Assembly (NCBI GenBank): GCA_037444305.1
Contig: JBBIMP010000018.1
Span: forward strand, 1-64,000
From: Acidobacteriota bacterium
Lineage (GTDB): Bacteria; Acidobacteriota; UBA6911
Length of the DNA stretch: 64,000 bases
Direction of reading: 5' to 3'
Part shown: piece after piece, positions 1 to 15,371 of the stretch
Numbering within the stretch: the stretch's first letter is position 1
Layout: every line of letters begins with the position of its first letter
The notes under the pieces: generated by a model
Databases searched by the model: none
Seen by the model: the letters and a program-made list of their open reading frames with translations, nothing else
What the model was told of the DNA's origin: nothing
Program-made: the position numbers and the translations under genes

Positions 1-574
1 CCAACCCCGGATTTTGTCGCGGCATGGCGCGACAAGAATCCTTAATTTGTTGGGCAGCGTCCTGGGTGTCGCGCAAAGGAAGGTCGTGCTGGGGATGCGA
101 CTCGACCTCCAGCGATAGCCCCAGCTTATGAAGATCTTCTCTCGACTTGGGACTGACGAAGCGCCGCGCCGAGCCAAGGTACACCGCGACCGGCTTTTGC
201 TGCGCGACTAGGTTTCGGACATTCTCAAGCGTTCCGCGGCTCTTTCCGTCCCAAAGCATCAGGCCATAGGAGGCATCATTGGCCATCTGTTTGTCTTTCG
301 CGGAATAGAGTTCAAACCCACGCGCTCCGCTCGGTGGGTTGACGAGGCAAACCTTCCAGTGGCCGACGTTATTGCGAACGGATCCGGCTATCGCGTAAAC
401 GATTACTCGCTCGTAGTCCCGATCTGCCAAATGCTGCTGCAGAGCGCGATCGGCGCCATTGGCGTCGCCGACAAAGAACCATAGGCCTCGGTCAATGAGG
501 TCGTTGAGTTTAGACCTGATGCTGTCGTTGAGCCGAGCGATCCGTCGTGAACCACCGAGAAATACCGCTTCCAT
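1..574 (-). CDS. SLOG-superfamily (DprA/Smf/LOG-like Rossmann) protein. N-terminal ~190 aa; the gene runs off the window start.
   Basis: The reverse-complement ORF starts at ATG 574..572 and has no stop before position 1. Translation: MEAVFLGGSRRIARLNDSIRSKLNDLIDRGLWFFVGDANGADRALQQHLADRDYERVIVYAIAG... The GGS..(x)..VGDANGAD..(x)..VIVYA pattern is typical of SLOG/DprA-like Rossmann folds. Its ATG overlaps the stop of the upstream PRTase (ggcTGAtcATG). Confidence 0.45.
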   Translation of the reverse strand, partial: MEAVFLGGSRRIARLNDSIRSKLNDLIDRGLWFFVGDANGADRALQQHLADRDYERVIVYAIAGSVRNNVGHWKVCLVNPPSGARGFELYSAKDKQMANDASYGLMLWDGKSRGTLENVRNLVAQQKPVAVYLGSARRFVSPKSREDLHKLGLSLEVESHPQHDLPLRDTQDAAQQIKDSCRAMPRQNPGL

Positions 575-576
575 GA

Positions 577-1178
577 TCAGCCCCGAGTTTTTGTCAACGC
601 AAGGGCGAAAACCGCGGAAACGCCCCCGGATTCCTTGAGGAGACGAGCGAGTGCATTCATCGTAGCGCCGGACTGGTAGAGGTCATCGAGAAGCAAAACC
701 CTTCGGCCCTTCAACCCTTCGCCCTCGATCGCGTGCACTCCTTGAGCAATTCAACGCGCTCCGCATAGTCGGCGTTCTTGAGTTCGGGCGTTGCCTTCGT
801 CTTCCGCACGCTTGTCTTGTCCACTGGCAGATCCAGCAGCCTTCCGAGTTCATCGGCGATCTGGTATAGCGGCTGGACTGCTCGACTCTTACTGGGCGAC
901 GCGGGAACGATGATATCGATTCCGGGGTTCCAGCCACGAACGAAGTCACAGGCAGCCTGGGCAATGGGTGTGACAGTCGATTGATCACCTCGGTACTTGA
1001 GCCTGTAGAACAGCTCTCCGAGCTCCGTGCGAGTGCTCTCGAACTGGGGATGTCCGTACTCGTTGTACCCGATGAACTCACTGCTGGTGACGTGGCGATC
1101 CAGAACACGGCCATCATCCCATGTCCCATGCAACGGTCTCGGATTCAGTTGCATCTTGTCCTCAGCTACGCTGCCCAA
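577..1178 (-). pseudogene. ComF/GntX-type phosphoribosyltransferase (PRTase), split by a frameshift in a gaaggg repeat tract
   Basis: The N-terminal ORF (1178..711) contains IDIIVPASPSKSRAVQPLYQIADELGRLL, matching the ComF-type motif D-x-IVPVP...RG-FNQ. After a frame change near 700-745, the C-terminal half reads KGRRVLLLDDLYQSGATMNALARLLKESGG, the PRPP-binding loop typical of type I PRTases (VLLVDD..TG.T). The two frames overlap within the repeat gagggcgaagggttgaagggccgaagggtt. Confidence 0.6.
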
Positions 1179-1246
1179 CGGGAAGCATCAGCTGCGGCGC
1201 GCGCTTTGCGCCGTCGACTGGATGCTGTTGTTAGCCGGGCTCTCTC

Positions 1247-1459
1247 TCACAGCAGCTTCCGGAATTGCTCTGGAGTGAGCCCAGCGTCGCGGGCGATTCC
1301 ACCCATCGTCAGGGCATTCACAGGATTGTGCCTTGGGACTGTGAGAATTCTGACCCCGTCGGACATGACGACATGTTTCCCCTGACGGATGATCCGAAAG
1401 CCCGCTTTCTCAAGTGCACGAGCTGCCTCCAGGTGATTGATGCCCGGTATCTTTGGCAC
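1247..1459 (-). CDS. hicA: HicA-family mRNA interferase toxin
   Basis: 70 aa: MPKIPGINHLEAARALEKAGFRIIRQGKHVVMSDGVRILTVPRHNP... This is a YcfA/HicA-like fold with a ..GKH..h....tvP.H.. pattern, and it sits immediately downstream of hicB. Confidence 0.78.
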   Translation of the reverse strand: MPKIPGINHLEAARALEKAGFRIIRQGKHVVMSDGVRILTVPRHNPVNALTMGGIARDAGLTPEQFRKLL

Positions 1460-1462
1460 GAG

Positions 1463-1660
1463 TCAGCCCGCGACCTCGATTTCTCGGATCACAGCATCTC
1501 TCAGGAGTTCGTCGCGCGCTTCGAGATATTCCTTGATGGCCTCTTGGATGTTGGCTAGCGCCTCATCCTCAGTGGCGCCCTGGGACCAACATCCTGGGAG
1601 TCCAGGAACAGATACACTGTAGCCCTCGTCAGTCTCATGCAAAGCTATTTTATACCTCAT
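1463..1660 (-). CDS. hicB: HicB-family antitoxin (short UPF0150 form)
   Basis: 65 aa: MRYKIALHETDEGYSVSVPGLPGCWSQGATEDEALANIQEAIKEYLE. This is the classic HicB/UPF0150 signature. There is a 4-bp gap to hicA. Confidence 0.75.
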   Translation of the reverse strand: MRYKIALHETDEGYSVSVPGLPGCWSQGATEDEALANIQEAIKEYLEARDELLRDAVIREIEVAG

Positions 1661-1879
1661 GTTGCCTCTTGCCTAAAGTATACACCCGCGCCCCTCCGGC
1701 TAACGCGAGCTGCGGATCAGCGGCGGGCCGCGTAGCGGACCGGCCGCTGCATCGCGTTGTTAGCGGCCCCTTGTCATCCTACCGCACGGCCCCCAGGAAA
1801 GGTAGTAGAGTCCGCGTGATAGCTGTGGCGGGCGTATCCGGCGCTCTAGCAAGGCGTCACAGGCCTCTCCAGGGTGCCG

Positions 1880-1908
1880 TTGACAAATCAGTCAACGCCA
1901 GCTAGGAT
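1880..1908 (+). promoter_or_regulatory. Near-consensus sigma70 promoter with an embedded palindrome, upstream of the MTase
   Basis: TTGACA (1880-1885), a 17-nt spacer, then TAGGAT (1903-1908), with the ATG at 1915. The inverted repeat TTGAC-N6-GTCAA (1880-1895) overlaps the -35 region and is a likely operator for the N-terminal XRE HTH of the downstream protein. Confidence 0.55.
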
Positions 1909-1914
1909 GGCACC

Positions 1915-4440
1915 ATGACTTTCGGGGCCTTCATTCGCGACCGTCGAGCAGCGCTCGGGATATCTCTCCGGGTCGCTGCCCAGAAGCTCGGGGTCGACGC
2001 AGCTCATCTGTCCCGTGTCGAAGCCGGTAAGGTACCCGTCTCTGAACAACTGATCCATCGCCTGGCGGGGGTTCTCGAATGCGAGGCAGACGAGCTGCTG
2101 CTCCTAGCCGGACGCCTTCCAGAATCCATCCGTGCCATGGTGGTGCAGCAGCCGTACCGCGCGACGGCTGCGCTGAGAACAATGGCCGAGATGTGCGTGG
2201 CTGAACCAGGCGTGCCCTACGGAGAGCCGCTCTTCGCCGAGCGAGGAGTGCGCGTCATCGAAGACGGCTTTCCCTTCGAGGAGATCAGCGAGATCGCTGA
2301 GGTCGAGAGCTGGCGCAAGGAGATTTACAGGCCCATCTACCACGTCCACAAGTGGTGGGCGCAGCGGTTGGGTTCCGTGTTCCGAGCGGCAATTCTCGGC
2401 GCGGCAGCCCCCAAGGGTTCATCGGTCTTGGACCTCTTCTACGAGCCGGTTCGTCTACCGGGCGTCGTGGTTTTCGACCCGTTCATGGGGAGCGGGACCA
2501 CAGTCGGCGAGGCGCGGAAGCTCGGTTGCACTGTTATCGGGCGCGACATTAACCCAGTGGCGTACCGTGCGGTTCGCGTCGCACTCGGCCCTGTGGACAG
2601 GGGAAGGGTGCACGAGCATTTCCGGAAGCTCGAATCCGGTGTCGGCAAAGAGATCAAGAAGCTGTACAGTTCGGTTGACAGTGACAGAGAGCTATGCGAC
2701 GTCCTCTACTTCTTCTGGGTTAAGGTCGTTCCGTGTCCTAAGTGCCAGGCGAAGGTCGACCTCTTCTCGAGCTACGTTTTCGCGACGCACGCGTACAAAA
2801 AGCAGAACCCGGAGGCCAAAATCATCTGTCCAGAGTGCGGCGATGTTTTCTCTGGGCGACACGACGACACCCAGGTCGCATGCCGATGTGGCGCTCGCTT
2901 CAATCCGCAAGAGGGGCCGGCCAAGCGAACCACAGCAATTTGCCGCCTGTGCGGGCACGAATTCCCGATTGCGAAGACTGCGAAAAGCGCCGGGAGGCCT
3001 CCGGATCACCGGCCCTACGCGAAGTTAGTGCTTCGGAAGGACGGAAGCAAGGAATACCTTGGGATCACGGACGGCGACCTGTCTGCGTTCATGGCCGCAA
3101 GGAACCGCCTGAGAGACTTCGATCCACCGCTTCCTAGTGTACCCATCGGCGACGGCCACAACACGCGCCAGATCCTGAACTACGGGTATCGGCACTGGCA
3201 CGAGTTGTTCAATGAGCGCCAGCTCCTGGCCCTGACGATGCTAGCAGGCGCGATTCGGGACATCCCGGAGAACTCGGCTCGGGATGCGCTCGCCGTACTC
3301 TTCTCGGGCATACTTGAGTTCAACAACATGTTCGCATCGTACAAGGGAGAAGGCACCGGCGCGGTGCGGCATATGTTCTCACACCACATCCTCAAGCCAG
3401 AGCGGACGCCCATCGAGGCGAACATCTGGGGGACGCCGCGGAGTTCGGGTGCCTTCTCGACGCTGTACGAATCCCGGTTGCTTCGCGCGCTGGATTACCG
3501 CGACGCCCCCTTCGAACTCGCGGTTGAGTACAGAGGCCCACGCAAGACAGGAAGGAAGGTAGTGGGTGTCAGCCCGCCGATCGGTGGGCCGATAATAGAG
3601 CGGTACCCGAAAGGCGGTCTTAAGCCCGGCGCTACATACCTCTCTTGCGGGGACTCGTCTGCCACGGACCTCCCCGACAAGAGCGTTGACCTCGTGATAA
3701 CGGACCCGCCTTTTTTTGACAACGTCCACTACTCTGAGCTCGCCGATTTCTTCTTCGTCTGGCAACAGCTTTACTTCGGTGACGGTTCATTCAGTGGCGC
3801 CTGTACCACCCGCCGGGACGCCGAAGTTCAGGACGTCGAAGCCGGTGCGTTCGCAGACAAGCTCGGCAAGGTCTTTGCGGAATGCCACCGTGTGCTGCGA
3901 GACGAAGGCGTCCTCGTCTTCAGCTATCACCACTCGCGCGAGGATGGGTGGGTTGCGGTCGCGCAGGCCGTTTTGGGTGCCGGCTTCAACATAGTTCAGA
4001 GCCAGCCCGTCAAGGCCGAGATGTCGGTCGCCGCTCCGAAAAGTCAGGCGAAGGAGTCTATCGACCTCGACGTACTGATCGTCTGCCGCAAACGAAAATC
4101 CGACCCGCGGCCGCGGCGTGCTGATGAGGGAGTTTTGCAACGAGCTGTCGCGAGCGCCGAGGAAAAGGTTAGACGGTTCAACAGCGTGGGCCGACATCTC
4201 TCTCGAAACGATGTGCGCGTCATTTTGCTAAGTCAGGTCCTGGTGGAACTGAGCGTGGGGAGGACGGCGAGCGAGGTGGGGGTTTCGCTCAAGGCCCTAC
4301 TGCCGAAGACCCGCAGCATCATCGAGAGGTCATGGAAGGACCAGAACGTGCGGGAACCATCGGGTCCCGTTGCGCCGCAGCCAGGGGCGGTGCAGCGTGA
4401 ATTGTGGGAAACACTGCCTACACGCGGAACGGGAGCCTAA
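1915..4440 (+). CDS. XRE-HTH::DUF1156 (COG1743) N6-adenine DNA methyltransferase with a Zn-ribbon
   Basis: 841 aa. N-terminus: GISLRVAAQKLGVDAAHLSRVEAG (XRE-type HTH). DUF1156 N-terminal signature: IEDGFPFEEISEIAEVESWRKEIYRPIYHVHKWWAQR. Motif I: VVFDPFMGSGTTVGEA. Cys clusters CPKCQ...CPECG / CRLCGHEF form the Zn-ribbon. Motif IV: DLVITDPPFFDNVHYSELADFF. Confidence 0.85.
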   Translation: MTFGAFIRDRRAALGISLRVAAQKLGVDAAHLSRVEAGKVPVSEQLIHRLAGVLECEADELLLLAGRLPESIRAMVVQQPYRATAALRTMAEMCVAEPGVPYGEPLFAERGVRVIEDGFPFEEISEIAEVESWRKEIYRPIYHVHKWWAQRLGSVFRAAILGAAAPKGSSVLDLFYEPVRLPGVVVFDPFMGSGTTVGEARKLGCTVIGRDINPVAYRAVRVALGPVDRGRVHEHFRKLESGVGKEIKKLYSSVDSDRELCDVLYFFWVKVVPCPKCQAKVDLFSSYVFATHAYKKQNPEAKIICPECGDVFSGRHDDTQVACRCGARFNPQEGPAKRTTAICRLCGHEFPIAKTAKSAGRPPDHRPYAKLVLRKDGSKEYLGITDGDLSAFMAARNRLRDFDPPLPSVPIGDGHNTRQILNYGYRHWHELFNERQLLALTMLAGAIRDIPENSARDALAVLFSGILEFNNMFASYKGEGTGAVRHMFSHHILKPERTPIEANIWGTPRSSGAFSTLYESRLLRALDYRDAPFELAVEYRGPRKTGRKVVGVSPPIGGPIIERYPKGGLKPGATYLSCGDSSATDLPDKSVDLVITDPPFFDNVHYSELADFFFVWQQLYFGDGSFSGACTTRRDAEVQDVEAGAFADKLGKVFAECHRVLRDEGVLVFSYHHSREDGWVAVAQAVLGAGFNIVQSQPVKAEMSVAAPKSQAKESIDLDVLIVCRKRKSDPRPRRADEGVLQRAVASAEEKVRRFNSVGRHLSRNDVRVILLSQVLVELSVGRTASEVGVSLKALLPKTRSIIERSWKDQNVREPSGPVAPQPGAVQRELWETLPTRGTGA

Positions 4441-4933
4441 ACCGACCGCGCGGGCGCGTCCTAGCCTCGCGATCCGGTGTGGGAAACGGGTCCACGAGCT
4501 GGGTAATGGACCAGCCCTCCGGCGCGTCGGAGCGGCGTCGATAGCAATAGAACCTTCGGGTGGTGCCTTCTGAGACGGACCGACGCAGCCTGTATGCAAG
4601 CTGCAGATCCGGCTCCTTACGCGGAACGTCCTCATCTGGGTGGATCAGGATAGGCAAGCCATCGAACTCCCGAGCACCGAGGGGGTTGGCGAAGATGAGC
4701 ATAGGTCGAGCCCGGTCGGCTCCGTCGCCATACGTCCCGAGTCCGATGCGTTTCTGGCGCTCGCCTGTGATGCTCAGGTACAGTTCAAAGTCCTCGTTCA
4801 GGGCGTTGCCATCCACCAGGCACAAGGCCGTCAGGACAACAGTCTGCGCGTCGTCGGGGGCGCACTCCAAGCAAACGAATAGGTAGAAGCCGCGGATGTC
4901 GAGGGCTGCACCCGCTGCATCATAGACGCGCAC
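4418..4933 (-). CDS. Hypothetical protein, probably the C-terminal part of a frameshifted nuclease-like gene
   Basis: 171-aa ORF that overlaps the upstream ORF 4831..5301 by about 100 bp in another frame. Convergent with, and abutting, the 3' end of the MTase gene. Confidence 0.3.
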   Translation of the reverse strand: MRVYDAAGAALDIRGFYLFVCLECAPDDAQTVVLTALCLVDGNALNEDFELYLSITGERQKRIGLGTYGDGADRARPMLIFANPLGAREFDGLPILIHPDEDVPRKEPDLQLAYRLRRSVSEGTTRRFYCYRRRSDAPEGWSITQLVDPFPTPDREARTRPRGRFRLPFRV

Positions 4934-5301
4934 ACGCCCGCAGGGGGCGTAGTGTTGTAATCGAGTCCAGAGCCTCGGGCGACACCGCCCTGCGCCGTCC
5001 GCTCCAGTTTCTTGACCTCAATGCCCACGATGCGGTTGATGTCGGTTGTTCGGTGCTTGAGGTCCATTCCTTCGCACATGCGAGGCCGGTACAGGACCAT
5101 GTCGGGGGTGATGAGCGGCCCGGTCGCCCTCGCGCACGAGATCGCTTCGATGCCTGTGAGCACTTCTGTGACAAGGTACTCGTCGAACGGATCGTCTTGG
5201 GTGTTTCGTTTGTCACGAAGTCTGAACGGTACCGGTCGTCCTGCGCTATCGAAAAACCGGTGGCGCAGTGCCAGAAAGGCGAATGTGGGGAGGTCGATCA
5301 T
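4831..5301 (-). CDS. Hypothetical PD-(D/E)xK-like protein; candidate restriction endonuclease, N-terminal part
   Basis: 156 aa containing ..TPDMVLY.. followed about 25 aa later by ..INRIVGIEVKK.. (a PD...E-x-K arrangement). Frame overlap with ORF 4418..4933 suggests a single disrupted gene. Confidence 0.3.
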   Translation of the reverse strand: MIDLPTFAFLALRHRFFDSAGRPVPFRLRDKRNTQDDPFDEYLVTEVLTGIEAISCARATGPLITPDMVLYRPRMCEGMDLKHRTTDINRIVGIEVKKLERTAQGGVARGSGLDYNTTPPAGVCASMMQRVQPSTSAASTYSFAWSAPPTTRRLLS

Positions 5302-5590
5302 GTCCTTGCCTCACTGGTTACGGGGAATGTCTCATCAGGTGCCGCTTATATTATGCGGGTCTCGATAGCTGGATAGGCCGCCAGTCGGCACCCGCTCAAA
5401 CCATCGAGAATATATCTCTCATAGCACAATGTTGTTTAAAGTCAAACGGTTATGCGGAAGCTGATGGGCGGCATATCCAGCTATGCTGCGAGTTCCGCCC
5501 GCTTAACTGGATAACAAGGGCGAAGTTTTGCTGAATCCCACTGCTCCCTTGGCGGACGGGTTCTGTATACTCCCCCTCGCCGCCACAAAC

Positions 5591-6682
5591 TCACATGCCG
5601 GTATCCAGCGGACTCCGAACCTCTCGGCCGCCACGATTCAGCACATGTGTGCAGATCATCGTCGTGCTCACGTCGCTGTGCCCTAGAAGCTCCTGAATCG
5701 TCCGGATGTCGTACCCTGCCTCCAGCAAATGCGTCGCAAAAGAATGACGCAGCGAATGACAGCTTGCCGGCTTCGCAATTCGCGCCTGGAGGGCTGCCCT
5801 GCGGACCGCTTTCTGCAATACCGACTCGTGAAGATGATGCCTGCGCTTCCTCCCCGACGAGGAATCCCAATAATGCCGGGTCGCCGGAAATACCCACTGC
5901 CAGCTCCATTCCCACGGAGCCTTGGGATACTTTCGCTCGATTGCCTGAGGCAACTCGACGCTCCCCGCCCCGCGTCGAAGATCCTCCCCATGCCTTTGGC
6001 GCACTCTTTCGATGTGCGCGGCCAGCGGTTCCGAAACTTTGCCCGGGAGAAGCGTCACCCGATCCTTGTTCCCCTTGCCGTCACGAACCGTAATTTCACT
6101 CCGGGCAAAATCCACATCCTTGATGCGCAGCCGACAGCATTCGAGCAGTCGCAAGCCGGCACCATAGAGCAGGGAGGCCATGATCCATTCCACCCCTCGC
6201 AGGTTGCCCAATAGGGCTGTTACTTCCGAGCGCGAAAGCACTACAGGCAGATGAACAGGCCGCTTCGCCCTCACGATGCCGGCGACCCACTCGAGGTCCG
6301 CCTGCAGCACCTCCCGGTAAAGAAATACCAGCGCGCATAACGCCTGGTTCTGCGTGGACGCGCTGACCCTGCCCTTGACCGCAAGATGGGTCAGAAACTG
6401 CGAGATCTCTGCCTCGCCCATCTCAGCCGGGTGCCGCTTGCCGTGAAAAAGAATGAATCGGCGAATCCAGCCGACGTATGACTTGGCCGTTCTGCGGCTG
6501 TAGCTGCGCCGCAAGATCTCGTCGCGGACACGGTCCAGCAGTTTCGGTTTTTGCGGGCAGAGAGAGACATTCTCACACACGAATGCGGCGGCCCGAGCAC
6601 AGCAGAATAGAAAATCGGCGGCAACATCTGATGGCTTCGCATCGGCGGTCACCAGAGGTTCAACGATCGATTCTTGGAGCAT
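5591..6682 (-). CDS. intI: Integron integrase IntI (tyrosine recombinase)
   Basis: Contains [39 protein letters not shown] (R-H-R-Y catalytic region). Also contains the IntI-specific additional domain [50 protein letters not shown], which aligns with IntI1 ALERKYPRAGHSWPWFWVF...[22 protein letters not shown]. The [12 protein letters not shown] box is also present. Confidence 0.9.
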
Positions 6683-7101
6683 TTCACCTCATAAGTTGCC
6701 CGAACGCCAGAGATATTTCAGCAGCGCGCCGGCAAATCCAATAACCGGGTCGTATCCCCCGCGAAAAACAGCAACGGGCTTTTCCTGCTTGAAACAAGAT
6801 GGCGCCGGTTGCGGCGTAAATCGCCGGCAATAGTCGTTGGCGGCAGGCGAAATCAAGGACTTCCCGGCGCTGGCGGCGCATGCGGCGACAAGGATTAGGA
6901 GAGAAGCGATGCCCCAGCGCTGGGCTGTTTCCCTTCGCGGGGACAGCGCGATCAGAAAGGCTCGCGGACGCATGCCTTGGCGCTGAACGAACCCGTGCTC
7001 CCGTTCAGTGTCTTGGGATCGAGATCCACCGTGTGCGTTTTGTAGGCGCTGCCGATTCAACCGGTGGCACGGGCGCCGCATGCGCGATCCAATTGTCCCA
7101 C

Positions 7102-7146
7102 TTGACGAGCTCTGTGACTCCTAGTAGCATGAGCGTGTGAGTCACA
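7102..7146 (+). promoter_or_regulatory. Promoter with a dyad operator upstream of, and overlapping, the vapB start
   Basis: TTGACG (7102-7107), a 17-nt spacer, then TAGCAT (7125-7130). The 8-bp inverted repeat TGTGACTC (7113-7120) / GAGTCACA (7139-7146) brackets the -10 and the GTG start, typical of RHH antitoxin autoregulation. Confidence 0.5.
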
Positions 7147-7364
7147 GACTGCAGGTCCTTATTCCCGAAGAATTGGATGCCCGTGTGCGCAAAGCGTCGC
7201 AGCGTTGCCGTATTTCCAAGGGGGAGTGGGTGCGACGGGCCATCGAACGCACCCTGGCCGAAGACGGGGCAACAGCCGAACCCCTCTCTCAACTGGCCTC
7301 ATTGGAGGCGCCCACGGCCGACATTGACCAGATGCTGGAGGAAATCGAAACGGGGCGCACGTGA
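7137..7364 (+). CDS. vapB: Ribbon-helix-helix (CopG/VapB-type) antitoxin
   Basis: 75 aa with a GTG start: ..HRLQVLIPEELDARVRKASQRCRISKGEWVRRAIERTL. This is an RHH beta-strand plus two helices. Its stop overlaps the vapC start (7361). Confidence 0.72.
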   Translation: MSHRLQVLIPEELDARVRKASQRCRISKGEWVRRAIERTLAEDGATAEPLSQLASLEAPTADIDQMLEEIETGRT

Positions 7365-7765
7365 GGGTTTTCATCGACTCCAACATTCCGATGTATGTCG
7401 CCGGCCGCGAACATCCTCACCGAGAACCGGCGCGCCGCTTATTGGAGAAGGTCCGCGCCGCCGAGCTGGAAGCATGCACCAGCACGGAAGTTCTGCAGGA
7501 AATCCTTTACCGCTACACTGCCTTGCAACGGCTGGACCTGGCACGACGGGTGTATGAGCTCTTCGTGCTGATTTGTCCGGTGATCTATCCCGTAACCCTG
7601 GCCGATACCGACCGCGCGAAGCAACTGGTATGCGGCGGAGGCAGCATCGGGGTTCGCGATGCGATTCACGCCGCCGTCATGCTGAACAACGACGTCCACA
7701 ACGTTGCGACGTTCGATGCAGCCTTCGACCTGATCCCGGGAGTGCGCCGCCTGCCTCTGGATTGA
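7361..7765 (+). CDS. vapC: PIN-domain toxin VapC
   Basis: 134 aa beginning MRVFIDSNIPMY (PIN N-terminal acidic residue), with ..DAIHAAVMLNNDVHNVATFDAAFD (C-terminal conserved Asp). Confidence 0.82.
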   Translation: MRVFIDSNIPMYVAGREHPHREPARRLLEKVRAAELEACTSTEVLQEILYRYTALQRLDLARRVYELFVLICPVIYPVTLADTDRAKQLVCGGGSIGVRDAIHAAVMLNNDVHNVATFDAAFDLIPGVRRLPLD

Positions 7766-7864
7766 AGGGCAAAGATCTTCCCCACCTGCTGAGGCAATGC
7801 ATGATAGATCCGGATTCAAGGGACTATCCGAGGAGCGGAGTTTCGATCGCAGGCTTTTGGCGGA

Positions 7865-8917
7865 TCAGCGGCCTGCCGCCGCGAGCTGGCCGCAGGCGGC
7901 GGCGATGTCGTGGCCGCCGCTGTAACGGCGGTGCGTGGCCAGCCCCGCCCGGTGCAGAACTTCGCGGAATGCGGATTCCGTCTCGCGAGCCGTCCGCCGG
8001 AATTCGTCCCGCCCGCCGGCGTCGGCGTTGTAGGGGACGATGCTGATCCGCGGCCGCACGCCCGTGGCGCGCACGAAATCCCGGCCGAGCCGCGCCAGCG
8101 CCGCAGCGTGCTCCGGGCTGTCGTTGACCCCTTCGAGAAGCGTCACGGCCCACATCGGCGCGATGCGCGTTTTGCGCGAATGATCGGCAACGGCGGCCAT
8201 TACCTGTTCGAGCGGGTGGGCGCGGTCGATCGGCATCAATCGGCGGCGGACCTCAGGCAGTGCGCTGCCGATCGAAATGCCAAGACGAACCTTGGGCGCC
8301 TCTGCGGCCAGCTGGCGAATGCCCTCGGGCAATCCCACGGTGCAGACTGTGATGGCTTTGGCGTTTACTGCCATCGTGCTCGGATTGCAGGCGACGGCGA
8401 TCGCCTGGAGCACTGCATCGAGATTGGCCAGCGGTTCCCCCATCCCCTGGAAGACAATCCCATGAATGCGTTCGCCGCGGCGGGGGTCCAGTCCGCCTCG
8501 GACAATCCGCAACTGTTCGATGATTTCCCACGCTTCCAGGTTCCGGTGCAGCCCAAGCCTGCCGGTGGCGCAGAAGGAACAACCGAGCCCGCAGCCGGCC
8601 TGCGAACTGACGCACACGGAGAAGCGGCCGGGACGGTCGAGCGGAATGCGGACGGCCTCCACGGTGCCGCCCCCCGGAACTTCCAGGATATATTTGATGA
8701 ACGGATCGACCCCACTCCGTTGATTGGCGCACACCGTCAGCTTCGGGAGCGATCCCGCAGCGGCGGCCGCGTCAATGACCGATTGCTTTACGCGCCGGAC
8801 AAACTCCAGGCCGCCTCCGCGGTGGATGCCGCTCGCTATTCTCCGGGCGTCGGTCAGGGAAATGCCGGGAATGATTTGAACCAGTTCATCCGGAGTCAGT
8901 GCCTGCAGAGCAATCAT
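7865..8917 (-). CDS. rlmN: Radical-SAM 23S rRNA/tRNA m2A methyltransferase RlmN
   Basis: 350 aa with the radical-SAM motif CSFCATG, plus GMGEPLAN and ..ISIVPYN.. regions, giving RlmN/Cfr family topology. Confidence 0.85.
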   Translation of the reverse strand: MIALQALTPDELVQIIPGISLTDARRIASGIHRGGGLEFVRRVKQSVIDAAAAAGSLPKLTVCANQRSGVDPFIKYILEVPGGGTVEAVRIPLDRPGRFSVCVSSQAGCGLGCSFCATGRLGLHRNLEAWEIIEQLRIVRGGLDPRRGERIHGIVFQGMGEPLANLDAVLQAIAVACNPSTMAVNAKAITVCTVGLPEGIRQLAAEAPKVRLGISIGSALPEVRRRLMPIDRAHPLEQVMAAVADHSRKTRIAPMWAVTLLEGVNDSPEHAAALARLGRDFVRATGVRPRISIVPYNADAGGRDEFRRTARETESAFREVLHRAGLATHRRYSGGHDIAAACGQLAAAGR

Positions 8918-8940
8918 AACAGGGGAGACAGGCGGTGCCG

Positions 8941-9150
8941 CCCTTTCAGGGCTTCCGGTTCACCTCCTGTCCGGCGATCCCAGGGCTTACGCCCTGGGCT
9001 TTCCTGCAGGACCCTTTCAGGGTCCATCATTTAGGTATCACCCCGGCCGGTCCGTTTTCAGAGTCCGCGTTTAGGTATCACCCCGGCCGGTCCCCTTTCA
9101 GGATTTGTTGTTTGGGTTCGATACCGGCCTATTCCTTTTCAGGATTCCTC
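8941..9150. repeat. Short direct-repeat array in the rlmN upstream region
   Basis: Two 34-bp near-identical units, TTTAGGTATCACCCCGGCCGGTCC(G/C)(T/C)TTTCAG(A/G)G, at 9030-9063 and 9070-9103. There are five copies of CYTTTCAGR. A perfect palindrome GGACCCTTTCAGGGTCC lies at about 9009-9025, and a hairpin CAGGGCTTACGCCCTG at about 8981-8996. Confidence 0.6.
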
Positions 9151-9174
9151 ACCTTGGTGTCTGTCTGCAATCCT

Positions 9175-10353
9175 CTAAAAGGCGAACAGGTAGTTGAGTT
9201 TGACGGCGAGGGAACGGTTCCGGATGTTGAACACGCCGCCCCACTCGTCGGTCTCATTGTACACGATGAAGAAATCGCTCCCCGGCCGGACGATCCAGTT
9301 GAAGCGGATATTGCTGGAGAACAGCCGGCTGTCGGTGTTGTACTGAAAGAGCGTCAGCAGAGCCATGTCGTTGCCGAAGGCAACCTGGAAGCGCGTGGAC
9401 ACCAGCTGAGTCGTGAACTTGCCCGCGGGGAGATCCACCCAGTTCACTTCGTAGCGGCCCGAGAGATCGAAATACCGGTTGATCCGGTAGCTGGTGTCGG
9501 CGGAGATTCGATCGCGCTCCCCGTTCCAGAACCCGCCCGTGTCGTAGGCCAGATTGAGGCGCACGTGCCTCCGGCGGAATGTGTCCAGACGTGCGGAGAA
9601 CGTGTTGAAGCGGTAGACTCCCGGCTGGATGGCCACTCCTGTCCTCAGCGCGAAAGGCTCCTCGATCTGCTCGAGCTGATTGACGACGGCTAAGGTCAGG
9701 GCGTCTCCGCTCTCGAACGTCGTGCCGACCGTGAGTTCACGGGTGCGGGTCTCGAGTATGTTCCCCTGGTCGGTCACGTACTGCAGCGAAGCGGAAAAAT
9801 CGAACTTGCGCACCCACTCCAGGCCCGGCCGCGGGCTGTAGCGCAGCTCGCCGGCGTTCTGCCGGCTGCCCGGCCGCCGCACGAAGCCGATCCCCGGCTG
9901 AAAGTTCTCCCCGGCGTCCATATACCGGTAATCGGCCCCCCAGCGGTCGGTGTCGTAGGCGAAGCGCAGATAGGCGGAGTGCGCGCCCTCTTCGATGTCA
10001 GGCGCGTCCACCTTTGCCAGGAAGCCCTCGAGCGCCCAGGCCTGCTTGAAGAGAAAGCCGGCATCCGCTCCGAAGACTCGATTGAAGCCGCCGCCTCCTT
10101 CGCGGTTGGTGAACAGCGCACCGATGCTGGAACGGCTCTCGATGTCGCGGCGGACGCGCAGGACGGTGAAGTTGTCGGCTGCAAAGCCGTGCTCCTCGCC
10201 CGTCTGAATGTTCATCGCGCCGATGCTGTAGGGCCCCTGGCGCCCGGAAAGGCGGGCGCCGGCGCGTATGGGAATGATTCGCCCGTTGGGCGAAAGGCCG
10301 ATGCGCCGGGTGAAGACGAGGTCGTTCTGGCGGGGCACGCCGAACTGGAACAT
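9175..10353 (-). pseudogene. DUF5916-family outer-membrane protein, C-terminal fragment (beta-barrel ending ..NYLFAF)
   Basis: 392-aa ORF ending with the outer-membrane C-terminal Phe signature. Separated from the upstream CBM9-like fragment by a frame break at 10353-10420. Confidence 0.55.
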
Positions 10354-10419
10354 CCGCTCCCCTTCCAGGAAGAACTGCCGCTTCTCGGGGAAAAAGAGTG
10401 AAAAGCGCGTGAAGTTGAT

Positions 10420-11007
10420 CTACTGGACGTCGACTTCCTCCTGGGCAAAGTCCGTGTTGACGGTGAAATCGGCGGTGAGTCCCGAGGTGACTCCCCATTT
10501 CACGTCCAGGCCGGCGTCGGCGCGGCCCTCGGTGGGCGTCCCCTGCCCGCCATAGCCCGCGCCGGCGAGCGCATAAGGCCGGGCTTCGATGCTGCGGCCC
10601 GGTTCGATCCCGCGCAGGCCGTGCAGGTGCCCCAGTTCCGCCGGCCGGTACCAGCTGGAATCATTGGGGACGAAAGGCCAGTAGACCCCTTCGTTCTTGC
10701 GCGGGATGTTGCGCTTGAAGCCGATCCCGAAAATCACATCGCCGCCGTCGGCCGGCGATTGAAAACGGAGGGACTTGAACGGGATGGCGACCTCCACCTC
10801 CCACCCGGCCGGATTCCAGCTGCCCTGGGCGTGCCAGACCGCGTCCCAGTTGTGGTTGCGGGTTTCAGTGGATTCGCCCGTTTGAAACAGGTCCTCTATC
10901 AGGCCGTTGGCGTTGGTGACAAACTGGATCGCGGTGCGATGGTCGTTGTAGGCATCGAGCAGGATCGAGACCAGATCGTCCGCGCCGGCGTTCTCGTCGC
11001 GGAACAT
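10420..11007 (-). pseudogene. CBM9-like N-terminal fragment of the same DUF5916 protein
   Basis: 195 aa: ..NHNWDAVWHAQGSWNPAGWEVEVAIPFKSLRF.. (CBM9/DOMON-like). No signal peptide is present, so the gene looks truncated and frameshifted. Confidence 0.5.
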
Positions 11008-11222: not shown

Positions 11223-14200
11223 TCAGGGTGCGGCGGAGTGGCGCGCATGGCAGAGGGTGTTGACCAGCCGAAGCTCCTCGACCGTCCGGCATGGCGTTGC
11301 CGGCAGGCGAGGACTTGCCACCAGCAGGGTGAGACATCGCGCGCGGGAAATGGCCACGTTCAACCGGTTCCTGCTGAAGAGGAATTCAATATCCCGGGGC
11401 AGATCCTCTGCGCTCGAGGTCGTCATCGAGACGATAACCACCTCCGCCTCCTGCCCCTGGAATTTGTCGACGGTGCCGACACGGGCGCCGGCCGGCAGAA
11501 CCGACCGCAGGCGGTTGACCTGCACATTGTAGGGGGCCACGACGAGAATGTTCTCGGGCCGCATGGGGTGCACGGCGCCGTCCGTGTCGGTGAAGGCCTG
11601 CAGCAGCAGGTTGGAGTAGACCTCGCGCACTACCTGAGCCTCCTCCTCGGATTTCTGCGAGCAGCCGGCGTGATCCACCCCGATGAAGCGGATTCCTGTC
11701 GGGCGCAACTCGGGGTGCGCGCCCCGCTTGAGGAGGAGTCTGCGATTCTGGTTCTTTGCCTCCGGGTGGAGCCGCCCTTCATACACGGCCTCGGATATGA
11801 AACGGCAGACATCGGCGTGCATGCGCCACGTGGTGGGCAGAAAAATCCCCCGCTCGGGCGGGATCGTCGCCGCGTCGCGGAGCAGGTACTCGAGAACAGA
11901 CATCCCCGACTCGCCGGGATGCACGCCCTGGATCGGCTGGCCGAGCTGCATCTGGTCTCCAACCAGCACGATGTTTTTGGCGCTGGTTCCCATAGCCACG
12001 AGGTTTGCCAGCGACACCTGGCCCGCCTCGTCCACGAACAGGCAGTCGAGCCTGCCGTCCATGTCCGGGTGCGCAAACAGCCAAGCCGAGCCGGCGAACA
12101 GGTCGGCGGAGAAATCGAATCTTTCGGTGCGGGTTTCGTTGGCAATCTGCCGCCCTGCGAAGAACGATTCGCTGTTCATTTCGGTCGCCTTCTTGATGCC
12201 GCGAAACGTGAGCCCGGTTTCGTCGGCCCGCCTCTCCACCGCGTGCAGCAGATTGTGGATCGCCTTGTGGGAGTTCGAGGCGACGCCGACCTTCTTTCCC
12301 TGCCGAATCAGCTCCACGATGATGCGGGATGAGACATATGTTTTGCCGGCGCCGGGCGGCCCCTGGATGAGCAGGCAGCTGTTCCTGAGATTGGCGACGG
12401 CGCGGGTGGACTCGATGACAAGGTCCTCCTTCCCGCTGATGATGGGGAGACCGTGCTTGAGGCCCTTGATTGCAGGCAGTTGCCGGAGCAGCAGCGATCG
12501 CGCGGCCGGATACTTCCCATCGCCCGCCGCCATGGAATCGGCGAAGCGGCCCAGGGCATCGTGCAGCACCCTCGTATCTATGGGCCCGGAGGGTATTAGG
12601 GAAAGTTCCGCCGGCAGCGATCCGGCCGAAGCGCCCCGTTTCAACTTCAGGGTGCCTCCTTCCAGGTCCAGCGCCACGATTGTGCCGGCAGGTTCCAACG
12701 TTGCTGCAACCAGACAGCGGTTGCCCGGTCCGAGTTTTGAGTCCTGCGGCGGAAAGCGATACCCGGCGACGATCGAGCGCTTCTCCGTCCGCTGTGGAAT
12801 GCCCGGATCCAGGCCGAGTGCGCCGATGCACTCGTAGTCCTCCACCAGGTCCTCGGGCGTGCTCTCCTGGCGGTCGAACATGGCCCACCATGCCGGCTTG
12901 GCCTCCCGGCGGTGAAAACCGAGCAGGTGCACGACGGTTTCGCGCGCAACCTTCTCCTCCGGAGGGCTGCCCTTCATGAGTTTCTTCCGGCGCGCGGCGA
13001 TTTCCTCCTCCGCCTGGGTTCGGGCAGCGGCTTTTTCCTCGTCCTGGTCCTCCGGCGCCTCGAACCAGGGGGTGCCGTCCGGCCGCAGATCGAGCAGCCA
13101 CTCGCGAAGCAGGTGCGTGGAACGGCAGTCTGCCCGGTTGTAATCCCGGATCTGCTCCAGCAGGCTGTCGTCGTGCGTCAATCGCCACTGCTCGTAAACC
13201 ACGATGCTGTCGCCGGCGCTTGTCACCTCGCCCTCTCGCTTTTTCATGTAGAAAACCTCGAGGTCCTTCAGCGAATAACCCCGCGCGGAAGCCTGGAGGC
13301 CTTCGCGTACGACCTTGTAGAGGTCGACCAGCTTGCGGGCCCGCAGCAGGTGGTCGACTTCCGCCTCGCGCGTGCCGTAGCGCGAGGCCAGCCGTTTGAG
13401 CGCGTTCTCCTCGTAGTGGTTGTAGTGATAGATGTGCGCGCCCGGATGCGCCTCGAGATGCTCCATGAAAAAGTCGACTGCCTGCCGGAACGCCGCCATC
13501 TCCTCGTCGTGGTTGTGGGCCCAGAATTCGCGGAAGACCGGCTTCCGGCTCGCAAACCGGTAAACGCCGAACAGGTATTCCAGGCCCTCGCCGAAGAAAG
13601 GATCCCCTTCGATGTCGAAGAACAGGTCGGCGGCATCGGGTCTGGGCAGCCTTTCGAAGCCTCTGCCCTCCTTGGGCGGGAGGAGCTGCCAGGAGTCCTG
13701 GCCGGTGTCGCGCCTGTTCGTCTGCAGGCGCGCCTGGGTGCGCAGTCGCGTCAGGCTCTCCTGGCCGATCCCGTCAATGCGCCGCGAATCGGGCGTGGAG
13801 GCCAGTGTCCGGGCTGTGGCGATGCCGGCCTCTATCAGCCTGCGGATCTGCGACTGGCGGATGTTGGCGACGAGCGTCAGGTGGTCGTCGTCCTCCCACC
13901 GGCGGCAACAAAGATCGCGCCACCGGCAGAGGTCGCAGTAGCGGCAGCGGCGCGGGTATGAATATTCTGGGGGCGATGCGGCGAATTCCTCGAAGCGGCG
14001 CTGAGCCTCCAGGTGGTAGTGGCGGAAGTCGGCGAAAAGGAAAGCCGCCTCGCTGCCGTCGCCCAGCACCAGGTGCATCGAGCGGGGTGTGAGCCCCTGC
14101 ATCGCCTCCAGCATGTCGGAGTAGCAGCAGAGCTGGATTACGCGGGCGGCCGAAGGCGCTCGGGCCAGCTTTGTGTCGACCGCTTCGTAGCTGAATCTCC

Positions 14201-14558
14201 CAAGCTTGGAAGGGGTGTCGACACGCCGGAGGAAGTCGGCGTAGCCGAACCACGGGTCCTTTTGCAGCGCGGCCTGGTAGATGACGTCGGCGCCTGCGGC
14301 CATTGCCTTGCGGGTCTGGGCGGTCCTTTCTGCCAGGGAGCCATCCGTTGGGATTTCGACCGCCTCCAGGTCTTCGGACAGCAGCTTTGCGAGGTAGGCT
14401 TTTTCGTGTTCCAGCCCTTTCCTGCGGAGGAGTTCGATGCCGGCGTCCTCCCCGGCCTGAGGAAGAGGTTGCTCGCGATGGCGAAGGTCCAGCCATGCGC
14501 AGTGCTCACACTCGAGGAAGCTCAGCAGGGCCGAGGGCGCGTGCATGTGCGGCATCAT
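11223..14558 (-). CDS. Cas4/RecB-like PD-(D/E)xK nuclease (Fe-S) + RNase H-like domain + SF1 (Upf1/Dna2-like) helicase fusion; TM0106 family, Nhi-like
   Basis: 1111 aa. N-terminal Cys cluster CEHCAW...CRYCDLCRWRDLCC (Cas4-type 4Fe-4S). Middle region ..LFFDIEGDPF..EYLFG (RNase H-like, TM0106/YprB). Helicase motifs: LIQGPPGAGKTY (Walker A), LFVDEAGQ (Walker B), VLVGDQMQL, and DKFQGQEAEVVIVS..NRLNVAISRAR (motifs V and VI). Confidence 0.85.
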   Translation of the reverse strand: MMPHMHAPSALLSFLECEHCAWLDLRHREQPLPQAGEDAGIELLRRKGLEHEKAYLAKLLSEDLEAVEIPTDGSLAERTAQTRKAMAAGADVIYQAALQKDPWFGYADFLRRVDTPSKLGRFSYEAVDTKLARAPSAARVIQLCCYSDMLEAMQGLTPRSMHLVLGDGSEAAFLFADFRHYHLEAQRRFEEFAASPPEYSYPRRCRYCDLCRWRDLCCRRWEDDDHLTLVANIRQSQIRRLIEAGIATARTLASTPDSRRIDGIGQESLTRLRTQARLQTNRRDTGQDSWQLLPPKEGRGFERLPRPDAADLFFDIEGDPFFGEGLEYLFGVYRFASRKPVFREFWAHNHDEEMAAFRQAVDFFMEHLEAHPGAHIYHYNHYEENALKRLASRYGTREAEVDHLLRARKLVDLYKVVREGLQASARGYSLKDLEVFYMKKREGEVTSAGDSIVVYEQWRLTHDDSLLEQIRDYNRADCRSTHLLREWLLDLRPDGTPWFEAPEDQDEEKAAARTQAEEEIAARRKKLMKGSPPEEKVARETVVHLLGFHRREAKPAWWAMFDRQESTPEDLVEDYECIGALGLDPGIPQRTEKRSIVAGYRFPPQDSKLGPGNRCLVAATLEPAGTIVALDLEGGTLKLKRGASAGSLPAELSLIPSGPIDTRVLHDALGRFADSMAAGDGKYPAARSLLLRQLPAIKGLKHGLPIISGKEDLVIESTRAVANLRNSCLLIQGPPGAGKTYVSSRIIVELIRQGKKVGVASNSHKAIHNLLHAVERRADETGLTFRGIKKATEMNSESFFAGRQIANETRTERFDFSADLFAGSAWLFAHPDMDGRLDCLFVDEAGQVSLANLVAMGTSAKNIVLVGDQMQLGQPIQGVHPGESGMSVLEYLLRDAATIPPERGIFLPTTWRMHADVCRFISEAVYEGRLHPEAKNQNRRLLLKRGAHPELRPTGIRFIGVDHAGCSQKSEEEAQVVREVYSNLLLQAFTDTDGAVHPMRPENILVVAPYNVQVNRLRSVLPAGARVGTVDKFQGQEAEVVIVSMTTSSAEDLPRDIEFLFSRNRLNVAISRARCLTLLVASPRLPATPCRTVEELRLVNTLCHARHSAAP

Positions 14559-14753
14559 AACAGAACTGAATGCCCGGCAGGCAGGGCCCTCGGGACACGG
14601 AAAAACACAGGCAGGGCTTTTGCCGGCGGCAAAAGCCCTGCTCGCGGATTCCGGCTGGTTTTTCCCTGACGGGGACTATCCATCTATAAAGCCCGGGGAC
14701 CTTGAATCGGGCGGGTGCGGCCTTTATCATCCACGGTTGCTGGAGGAAAGTTT

Positions 14754-15371
14754 ATGAACTGGAAGGGACTGATCGTTCTCTCGCTGGCGGTGTGCATCGC
14801 AGGCTGCGGAAAGAACGGAAATAGCGGCGCAAAGGGCGAGGGGTTATCGGCTGACGAGGAGTGGCACAAGGGGATAGCGGCCGCGATGGAACGCGAGGAT
14901 CATGCCGCGGCGCTGGAACTGATCCGGCCGATAGCGGACAGAGGGGAAGCAGACGGGCAGTTCTTCATGGGCTTCATGCACTATTCCGGCTTCGGGGTGG
15001 CCAAAGACAAGGCGGAGGCGGCCCGGTGGTACCGGATGGCGGCCAAGCAGGGACATGCCAAGGCGCAGGCGAACCTCGGTCTCATGTATCACCTGGGGGA
15101 TGGAATCGACCGGAACCTCGAGGAGTCCATCTACCTCCTCAGGTCCGCCGCCGAGCAGCGCGATTCCGGAGCCCAGTTCATGCTGGGCCTCATCTACAGC
15201 CGGGGAGAGGGCGTGCCGAAGGACCCGGTCCAGGCTTACTTCTGGCTCAATCTGGCCGCCGAAGAAGGTGCGCCGAACGCCGAGAGCTTCAGAAACAAGC
15301 TTGCCGGGGCTCTCTCCGAGGAAGACATTGCCCGCGCCGAAGAGATGGCGCGGAATTGGAAGGCGAAGTAA
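14754..15371 (+). CDS. Sel1-repeat (TPR-like) lipoprotein
   Basis: MNWKGLIVLSLAVCIAGCGK carries a lipobox (IAGC). Four Sel1-like repeats follow, e.g. AKAQANLGLMYHLGDGIDRN and GAQFMLGLIYSRGEGVPKD. An RBS (GGAGGAAAG) lies 5 nt upstream. Confidence 0.75.
   Translation: MNWKGLIVLSLAVCIAGCGKNGNSGAKGEGLSADEEWHKGIAAAMEREDHAAALELIRPIADRGEADGQFFMGFMHYSGFGVAKDKAEAARWYRMAAKQGHAKAQANLGLMYHLGDGIDRNLEESIYLLRSAAEQRDSGAQFMLGLIYSRGEGVPKDPVQAYFWLNLAAEEGAPNAESFRNKLAGALSEEDIARAEEMARNWKAK

Follow-up and report, generated by a model that had tools for sequence, protein, structure and literature searches.

The left end of a 64,000-nucleotide stretch of an acidobacterial genome (contig JBBIMP010000018.1, positions 1 to 64,000; hereafter the window) packs conflict and mobile genes into a compact cluster that borders on a housekeeping-type gene. 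A reading made from the letters alone (the sequence-only reading) had named these genes, and all of them were found at the stated places by an open reading frame (ORF) map and by searching the window proteins against Pfam, PADLOC and NCBIfam. They include an SLOG-fold gene and a phosphoribosyltransferase (PRTase) gene, hicBA, a helix-turn-helix (HTH)-fused DNA methylase gene, nuclease-like ORFs, the integron integrase gene intI, vapBC and an rlmN-like gene (Table 1). The cluster is also foreign in composition: G+C is ~0.55-0.65 over positions 1-7750 and 0.64-0.68 further right, and this step at ~7750 matches the right border proposed at rlmN. Contig CAZIEJ010000014.1 of the metagenome-assembled genome (MAG) GCA_964538715.1 terminates at window position 1, and nothing lies further upstream in that assembly. 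Stretches from other genomes and contigs that were used for comparison are given L numbers. We describe below how positions 1-6682 came to be read as one integron with its cassettes. The host of this integron is an acidobacterial (Terriglobia-like) MAG.

Table 1. Features at the left end of the window. Some features on the minus strand are given in their reading direction; R1 is the attC covariance model described in the text.
Feature	Position	Strand	Evidence or remark
SLOG-fold gene, ShosA/DprA-like presumed antitoxin	2-574	-	191 of ~205 codons present
attC of cassette 3	55-1	-	R'' GCCCAAC 55-49; R' GTTGG 5-1, cut by contig end
PRTase gene (PsyrT/ShosT-like presumed toxin), pseudogene	577-1154	-	1-nt deletion near 739
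Cassette 3 (PRTase + SLOG), 1174 bp	1178-5	-	Start shared with L089 and L090
attC of cassette 2	1173-1236	-	R1 36.9 bits, E 1.3e-8, minus strand only
hicA	1247-1459	-	PF07927 HicA_toxin 33.6 bits (cut-off 27)
hicB	1463-1660	-	PF15919 HicB_lk_antitox 44.6 bits (cut-off 27)
Cassette 2 (hicBA), 525 bp	1703-1179	-	Bounded by the G/TT of two attC R' boxes
attC of cassette 1	1698-1765	-	R1 37.6 bits, E 7.9e-9; fold z = -2.7
Palindrome GTTGAC-N6-GTCAAC over the methylase promoter	1879-1896	+	Conserved in L085
Methylase promoter TTGACA-17-TAGGAT	1880-1908 (feature 1879-1908)	+	Promoter scan, 10/12 positions
HTH (Xre)-fused DNA methylase gene, 841 aa	1915-4440	+	Pfam HTH_31, HTH_3, N6_N4_Mtase
Type II restriction endonuclease gene, EcoRV-like PD-(D/E)XK fold, pseudogene	4418-5301	-	1-nt deletion near 4942
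Cassette 1 (restriction-modification pair), 3641 bp	5344-1704	-	L085 homology and attC
Presumed attI region	5345-5590	-	Border from L005 homology; three TATCCAG(Y)TA motifs, hairpin, candidate promoter
intI, integron integrase	5591-6682	-	TIGR02249 457 bits
vapB, ribbon-helix-helix (RHH, weak), 75 aa	7137-7364	+	RHH matches sub-threshold
vapC, PIN	7361-7765	+	PIN 57.5 bits (cut-off 23.6)
RlmN/Cfr-family radical S-adenosylmethionine (SAM) methyltransferase gene	7865-8917	-	Higher-G+C flank begins here

The integrase family was established by profile and by alignment. The intI product scored 457.1 bits against TIGR02249 (NCBIfam; cut-off 265), the signature of the integron-specific tyrosine recombinases, which bears out the IntI call of the sequence-only reading. 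It aligned end to end with VchIntIA (2a3v), with an E of 5e-88 over residues 50-360, and an identical IntI protein was found in a second assembly. The closest relative lies in a sister integron in a Terriglobia MAG (L005), whose IntI is 84% identical. DNA homology between L005 and the window covers intI and ~245 nt downstream of it only. The true intI start is probably downstream of the annotated start at 6682, since the L005 homology begins at 6652. Directly upstream of the annotated start is a 94-codon ORF (6689-6973, minus strand) with a lipoprotein-like signal (LILVAAC) and no family match; this ORF may be spurious.

attC sites were searched for with a covariance model, R1, trained on 12 attC sites, all from loci other than the window. 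In the training alignment 88% of the cells are paired, 10 pairs vary on both sides, and none of 500 shuffles equals it. On both strands of the 64-kb window R1 gave exactly two matches (E 8e-9 and 1e-8), both on the minus strand, at 1698-1765 and 1173-1236. These are imperfect palindromes that carry GCTAACAAC on the minus strand and stand exactly between gene groups. A third site, at the contig end, was recognized by its fold and by complementarity. A home-made palindrome scan (AAC...GTT plus constrained folding) had also recovered both R1 sites, but its background was about one match per 5 kb and R1 was used instead. A direct-repeat search returned chance families only, and an Rfam scan of the island gave no match.

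The minus strand carries all three attC sites, and their coordinates are lower than those of intI; they lie downstream of it on its own strand, as in the inverted group of integron integrases. Read along the minus strand, the order is intI, the presumed attI region and a series of three or more cassettes, each of which is closed by an attC and is read in the direction of intI. Every cassette begins with the complement of the R'' box in its own attC, the classical signature of a cassette. Everything to the left of intI is thus a cassette array in which three attC sites delimit three cassettes, and positions 1-6682 are very probably one chromosomal integron of the inverted integrase type rather than the loose defence island that had been proposed. 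The integrase had also been credited with almost no cassette array; its array lies downstream of it, on the same strand. A search for att sites at the island borders had been recommended, and attC sites were found on the minus strand at the cassette borders. Since the contig end falls inside the third attC, the array continues beyond the window. R1 was run on 69 loci, of which 64 are IntI loci; the inverted layout (attC downstream, on the intI strand) was seen in 16 and the canonical layout (upstream, on the opposite strand) in 9. The cassettes would have been captured by IntI-type recombination at G/TT, where the slash marks the crossover.

Cassette 1 holds a restriction-modification (R-M) pair. 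The sequence-only reading had listed nuclease-like ORFs here; they are present, but the two ORFs of 171 aa and 156 aa (4418-4933 and 4831-5301) are a single gene that the deletion near 4942 has split. The corrected endonuclease of 294 aa has 911 homologues, and the best matches listed are ~260-350 aa long with 91-100% query cover and up to 87% identity. The protein has an EcoRV/SwaI-like fold with the motifs PD67...E95-V-K97, so a nuclease fold stands next to the methylase as in type II R-M systems. No Pfam, PADLOC or NCBIfam model matches the endonuclease family. In three other contexts the endonuclease gene is convergent and overlapping with an HTH-methylase gene of ~840 codons, without exception. 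The methylase had been counted among the non-canonical members of the cluster; instead, the HTH-methylase and the 294-aa endonuclease always occur together, forming a convergent type II R-M pair, and both belong to large families.

The methylase gene runs antisense to the array. Its HTH_31 and N6_N4_Mtase domains are above cut-off (PF01555, 56.5 bits), and the protein has the SAM-binding motif I (DPFMGSGTT) and the catalytic motif IV (DPPF), with Zn ribbons between them. PADLOC matched it with MTase_II (1.3e-26) and DUF1156_MTase (2e-24). The label HTH-DUF1156 methylase therefore holds for the HTH and methylase domains, but the DUF1156 part is sub-threshold: PF06634 gave 17.2 bits vs 24, and the anti-phage model NF042963 (DUF1156_antiphage) 115.8 vs 1000. 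By these scores the methylase is only distantly DUF1156-like. The palindrome over its promoter is presumed to be an operator for the fused HTH domain, and the methylase would be expressed from its own promoter and is probably autoregulated.

The borders and the mobility of cassette 1 were established by comparison with L085. The two share 80% DNA identity over window positions 1878-5344, and the homology stops one base from the attI border. The L085 counterpart is 3666 bp long, begins G/TTAACGGCACC and has its own attC (9561-9622, R1 48 bits). It sits within a DUF1016 gene at CTTG/TTGGAC, with G/TT at both flanks, and the gene resumes after G/TTGGAC. When the L085 flanks are re-joined, a single continuous DUF1016_N domain results (E 3.5e-34). 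The insertion and the restored domain identify the R-M pair as a genuine mobile cassette that is able to enter a secondary GTT site. No attC accompanies the pair in L087 and L088, where the copies are more distant. In the window the cassette start AAGCGGCACC (5348) complements its own R'' box, GGGGCCGCTAAC. The extrahelical-base asymmetry, which is clear in the attC sites of cassettes 2 and 3, is ambiguous in this attC, and its strand was settled by R1 (37.6 bits on the minus strand vs 5.9 on the plus strand).

Cassette 2 is a HicAB cassette. Both domains are above the Pfam cut-offs, as the hicBA call had implied, and the cassette start TTAGCCGG (1703) complements the attC R'' box CCGGCTAAC (CCGGCTAA).

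Cassette 3 carries the PRTase and SLOG genes. Both genes of the proposed SLOG and PRTase pair are present, but the PRTase gene is split into two frames, and the deletion near 739 was located against intact 192-aa homologues in L089 and L090. In those loci the two genes are 3 nt apart. The pair is a conserved two-gene operon resembling ShosTA/PsyrTA, not the non-canonical association it had been taken for. The window, L089 and L090 share the cassette start G/TTGGGCAGCG letter for letter, while the DNA upstream of it is different in each, a comparison that established this border and the mobility of the cassette. The start G/TTGGGC (1179-1173; TTGGGC from 1178) complements the R'' GCCCAA. The attC itself folds as a canonical single hairpin (z = -3.55), in which the R boxes pair, the 7/3-nt spacer is unpaired and the 5' arm has one extrahelical C. 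A fourth cassette begins with bases 4-1 (TTGG). R1 missed this attC as well as the one that follows the SLOG gene in L089 and L090. The L089 locus has a cluster of attC sites at 5872-10119 with no integrase within 8 kb, resembling a cluster of attC sites lacking an integrase (CALIN); there the intact PRTase-SLOG cassette stands beside DUF6883/DUF4926 and acetyltransferase cassettes.

The C-terminal part of the window PRTase matches the Pribosyltran, PsyrT and ShosT profiles. The intact homologue matches PADLOC PsyrT (9e-14) and ShosT (5.1e-10), profiles without a curated cut-off, and a sequence search of the PRTase against PDB chains gave nothing significant. The SLOG protein has 668 homologues with a typical length of 205 aa. 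It has no match in Pfam, PADLOC or NCBIfam, with none in PADLOC even at E up to 1 (ShosA and PsyrA included), and its profile found nothing significant in a sequence search of the PDB. An AlphaFold model of an 84%-identical homologue has pLDDT >90 for residues 1-157. Its best PDB match by Foldseek is ShosA (8zva; E 1.4e-4, TM 0.50), followed by DprA, TRPM SLOG, LOG and ThsA SLOG. In the family alignment the core is conserved, the tail is variable, and there is a conserved motif, AAQQ, corresponding to R'' (GCCCAACAA). Past about residue 157 the tail is read-through of the attC (window 1-104, minus strand) and is disordered in the model. Many annotated 205-aa SLOG-partner proteins therefore end in residues encoded by a recombination site.

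ShosT is a PRTase toxin that disturbs purine metabolism, and ShosA is a DNA-binding antitoxin that is made unstable by its C-terminus (PMC11961720). By analogy, cassette 3 most likely encodes a ShosTA/PsyrTA-like system, in which the PRTase toxin would disturb nucleotide metabolism and the DprA/ShosA-like partner would restrain it; we infer that the cassette acts like ShosTA. Because there is no ShosA or PsyrA profile match and no significant PDB sequence match, the pair is, as judged from these searches, a family distinct from ShosTA, with smaller proteins.

With these three cassettes accounted for, no uncharacterised ORF is left over in the array, where the sequence-only reading had expected new immune functions among such ORFs. 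The region could also have been a generic defence island, formed by independent insertions of conflict genes at a hotspot beside rlmN, with intI as an orphan (In0) integrase. The low-G+C block does adjoin a housekeeping-type gene, vapBC on the rlmN side has no attC, and a PADLOC run on the region, which had been recommended as a check, recognized the methylase and the PRTase only and not the SLOG protein or the endonuclease. But the three attC sites stand exactly at the inter-cassette positions and all on the intI strand, three-way comparisons confirm the cassette borders, and the layout of L005 is identical. An island of this kind is contradicted for 1-6682 and may hold for vapBC (6683-7865) only; as an account of the whole region we consider it very improbable.

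The gene pair on the other side of intI was called vapBC correctly. A PIN-domain gene follows a small antitoxin ORF with sub-threshold RHH matches, the two overlap by 4 nt, and a promoter-like site lies at 7102-7130. Since vapBC is divergent from intI, like classical cassettes, and since toxin-antitoxin (TA) cassettes are common, the element could in principle be a canonical integron with its cassettes upstream of intI, in which vapBC would be the sole cassette and the left-hand genes would be unrelated. Against this, R1 found no attC in 6683-7865 on either strand, where the best match (8.3 bits, E 0.9) lies within vapC; the spacer 7760-7870 folds no better than shuffles, and the L005 homology stops at the intI start. 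The vapBC side has no counterpart beside intI in L005 and no relative among the fetched loci. A canonical layout is scarcely credible on this evidence, even less so than a generic island. Under the inverted-integron reading, vapBC and the rlmN-like gene appear to be neighbours outside the cassette array.

The presumed attI region of the integron was delimited by comparison with relatives. The L005 homology ends at window position 5345, which equals L005 11245, and there L005 reads G/TTAGGTTCC (G/TTAGG). Past this point L005 carries three attC sites on the intI strand (11877, 12558 and 13703) with RHH-PemK cassettes of the MazEF type and BrnT-type cassettes. In the window the junction, ...CGCATAATATAAG/CGGCACC (AAG/CGGC), has no G/TT, and its border is set by L005 (to 5345) and by L085 (to 5344). 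From L005 and L085 together the sequence expected here is ...TTAAG/TTAACGGCACC. A 4-bp deletion of TTAA would be the simplest explanation for the lost GTT crossover. The region holds a 120-nt hairpin at 5365-5484 on the minus strand (z = -4.4) with a counterpart at L005 11098-11225, and of the three TATCCAG(Y)TA motifs two are direct and one is inverted. A candidate sigma-70-like cassette promoter (5438-5409) lies in the hairpin loop and is directed into the array. IntI binding, a cassette promoter and an intI terminator are candidate roles for the hairpin. No DNA relatives of the attI region were found among the fetched loci besides L005. A candidate attI core, GTTAAGC at 5503-5509, was dropped because L005 has GCTAAGC there and the homology runs 160 nt further.

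The integrase itself has a lesion. The codon for the catalytic Tyr is TGC (Cys344, 5653-5651) and faces the Tyr of QIYTHV in 2a3v. The Tyr is kept in 77 of 79 relatives; the peptide MICTHVLN served as the seed of the locus scan, and this biases the count. Two further loci, L028 and L048, encode IntI homologues that also have Cys for the catalytic Tyr (MICTHV), one of them beside a large attC array; with that seeding, their frequency is uninformative.

On balance, the integron seems now to be inert and decaying, because Cys stands in for the nucleophile Tyr, the attI GTT is gone, and the endonuclease and PRTase genes carry 1-nt deletions. Both killer genes (endonuclease and PRTase) are frameshifted and both protective partners (methylase and SLOG) are intact; addiction modules usually decay in this order, with the toxic genes lost before the antidotes. 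The Cys-IntI and the two frameshifts recur in the Logan assembly of sequencing run SRR11582151.

Several points weigh against this interpretation and the one it builds on. attI was placed by comparison with a single relative, and the canonical GTT is missing from it. The arms of the cassette 1 attC are atypical in their asymmetry, and the third attC (55-1), undetected by R1 and truncated at the contig end, rests on fold and complementarity. The likeness to ShosTA comes from one profile match, made on a homologue, and a fold match with a TM of ~0.5, and the gene functions are all predicted. The Logan and MAG assemblies were made with different software but probably from the same underlying reads, so that the frameshifts and the Tyr-to-Cys change may reflect variation in the population, or else minority or consensus artefacts. 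An in-frame stop is also found in a DUF5916 gene nearby, and pseudogenes may thus occur throughout this MAG and not just in the island.

The last two points also bear on whether the integron is in fact fully active, with the frameshifts, the Tyr-to-Cys change and the missing GTT being assembly or consensus errors or confined to a minority of cells. The sequence is a MAG, and the in-frame stop in the neighbouring gene could mean general problems of sequence quality. In addition, the Logan contigs of the run, which are shorter than the window contig, end ~10-30 nt from cassette borders (L093 = window 9059-5354, L004 = 5379-1699, L002 = 1726-26), which would fit heterogeneity of the junctions in the population. 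However, the same four lesions, Cys-IntI included, are present in two assemblies from different software. Neither deletion removes a homopolymer base, though the endonuclease deletion directly follows a C5 run. The lesions also hit the toxic partners and spare the protective ones, as selection would and random error would not. We therefore regard a fully active integron as unlikely, and keep to an integron that is decaying.

To the right of vapBC, the gene called rlmN encodes an RlmN/Cfr-family radical-SAM enzyme (Pfam Radical_SAM matched), but it is below the equivalog cut-offs for RlmN (TIGR00048 222 vs 290 bits; PRK14470 261 vs 441). From these scores it is assignable to the RlmN/Cfr family level only. 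Just upstream of it, at 8979-9024 on the plus strand, is a match to the Acido-Lenti-1 RNA motif (30.5 bits vs a gathering threshold of 37, E 1e-3). A similar element of ~80 nt occurs twice in L005, in both orientations (14527-14608 and 14702-14781), and fits an acidobacterial origin. Past the Acido-Lenti-1-like element, the intergenic stretch 9027-9100 contains two direct copies of CATTTAGGTATCACCCCGGCCGGTCC..TTTCAG. The DUF5916-family gene (9175-11007, minus strand) has an in-frame TAG at 10422-10420, where EEVDVQ is followed by the stop and then by INFTRFSLFFPEKR, with both ORFs in the same frame; this gene, outside the island, is either another pseudogene or a case of stop read-through. Next is a gene for a 1111-aa protein (11223-14558, minus strand) with an RNase_H_2 domain and a superfamily 1 (SF1) helicase (AAA_11/AAA_12, with a weak Schlafen-helicase match). 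This RNase H/helicase gene is 3 kb from the island and may be conflict-related.

Tentatively, the PRTase and SLOG genes may form an unnamed "mini-ShosTA" TA or anti-phage family that is widespread (668 SLOG homologues) and mainly borne on integron cassettes. The attC would then encode the disordered C-terminal tail of the SLOG partner, and, as reported for ShosA, whose instability depends on its C-terminus, such a tail could render the antitoxin labile. The same proposal would make an uncharacterised R-M family of the EcoRV-like endonuclease and the HTH/Zn-ribbon methylase, one that travels as a 3.6-kb cassette and can insert at intragenic GTT. We consider this joint proposal possible rather than probable.

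What looked like a heterogeneous defence island is reduced here to one mechanism, the capture of addiction and defence modules by an integron into an acidobacterial chromosome. This extends the picture of integrons as banks of defence genes to soil Acidobacteriota and to the inverted integrase type. Exact borders are given for three cassettes, including an unusually large R-M cassette that was caught in another genome at the secondary GTT where it had inserted. The 294-aa endonuclease and the SLOG partner each stand for a large protein family that lacks any profile model. The locus also offers a view of what is probably a dying integron, which has lost its nucleophile, its attI crossover and, ahead of the antidotes, its toxic genes. 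Inverted integrons, TA cassettes in chromosomal integrons and defence cassettes are already known, and current knowledge is not overturned. The points of interest are the R-M cassette with proof of secondary-site insertion, the compact ShosTA-like cassette family, the two large families that no profile model covers and the coherent pattern of inactivation.

Type IIP R-M systems, for example those of the SsoII type, have EcoRV/SwaI-like endonucleases and HTH-autoregulated methylases. The pair in cassette 1 shares with them the convergent arrangement, the PD-(D/E)XK fold, the N-terminal HTH on the methylase and the palindrome over the methylase promoter. It differs in that its endonuclease family has no profile model and in that its methylase, at 841 aa, contains Zn ribbons and is distantly DUF1156-like.

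Compared with ShosTA (8zva; PMC11961720, PMC12961424) and PsyrTA, cassette 3 has the same gene order, with the PRTase toxin gene directly followed by a DprA/SLOG-fold partner. The PRTase matches the same profiles (ShosT and PsyrT), and the best PDB fold for the partner is ShosA. The window proteins are much smaller, with 192 aa for the PRTase and a core of ~157 aa for the partner vs 308 aa for ShosA, and there is no RecQ domain, unlike PsyrT. The partner matches no PADLOC ShosA or PsyrA model, and its tail is encoded by the attC.

Insertion of cassettes at secondary (attG-type) genomic sites has been mentioned previously (PMC12901181, PMC4889954). The L085 R-M cassette at a GTT inside the DUF1016 gene is the same kind of event, with the difference that it is seen in the L085 genome and not in the window. 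Defence cassettes in integrons have also been described, as phage-defence cassettes (BRiCs; Kieffer et al., bioRxiv 10.1101/2024.07.02.601719). Like these and the TA cassettes of sedentary chromosomal integrons, the window array carries defence and TA modules, two-gene cassettes included. Here too there are homologues outside integrons without attC, as in the R-M pairs of L087 and L088. The window differs in that a single 3.6-kb cassette is an R-M pair with an antisense, self-promoted methylase, in that functions are predicted, and in that two systems are inactivated.

The inverted integron-integrase group is known from Treponema and others (Boucher 2007; Cury 2016, PMC4889954). The window integron shares with it the integron-specific signature of IntI, the position of attC sites and cassettes on the intI strand and downstream of intI, the cassette starts complementary to R'' and the G/TT crossover. 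It differs in its acidobacterial host, the Cys nucleophile in its IntI and an attI without GTT. Its attI region differs further in the 120-nt hairpin and the three TATCCAG(Y)TA motifs, which it has in common with L005 only.

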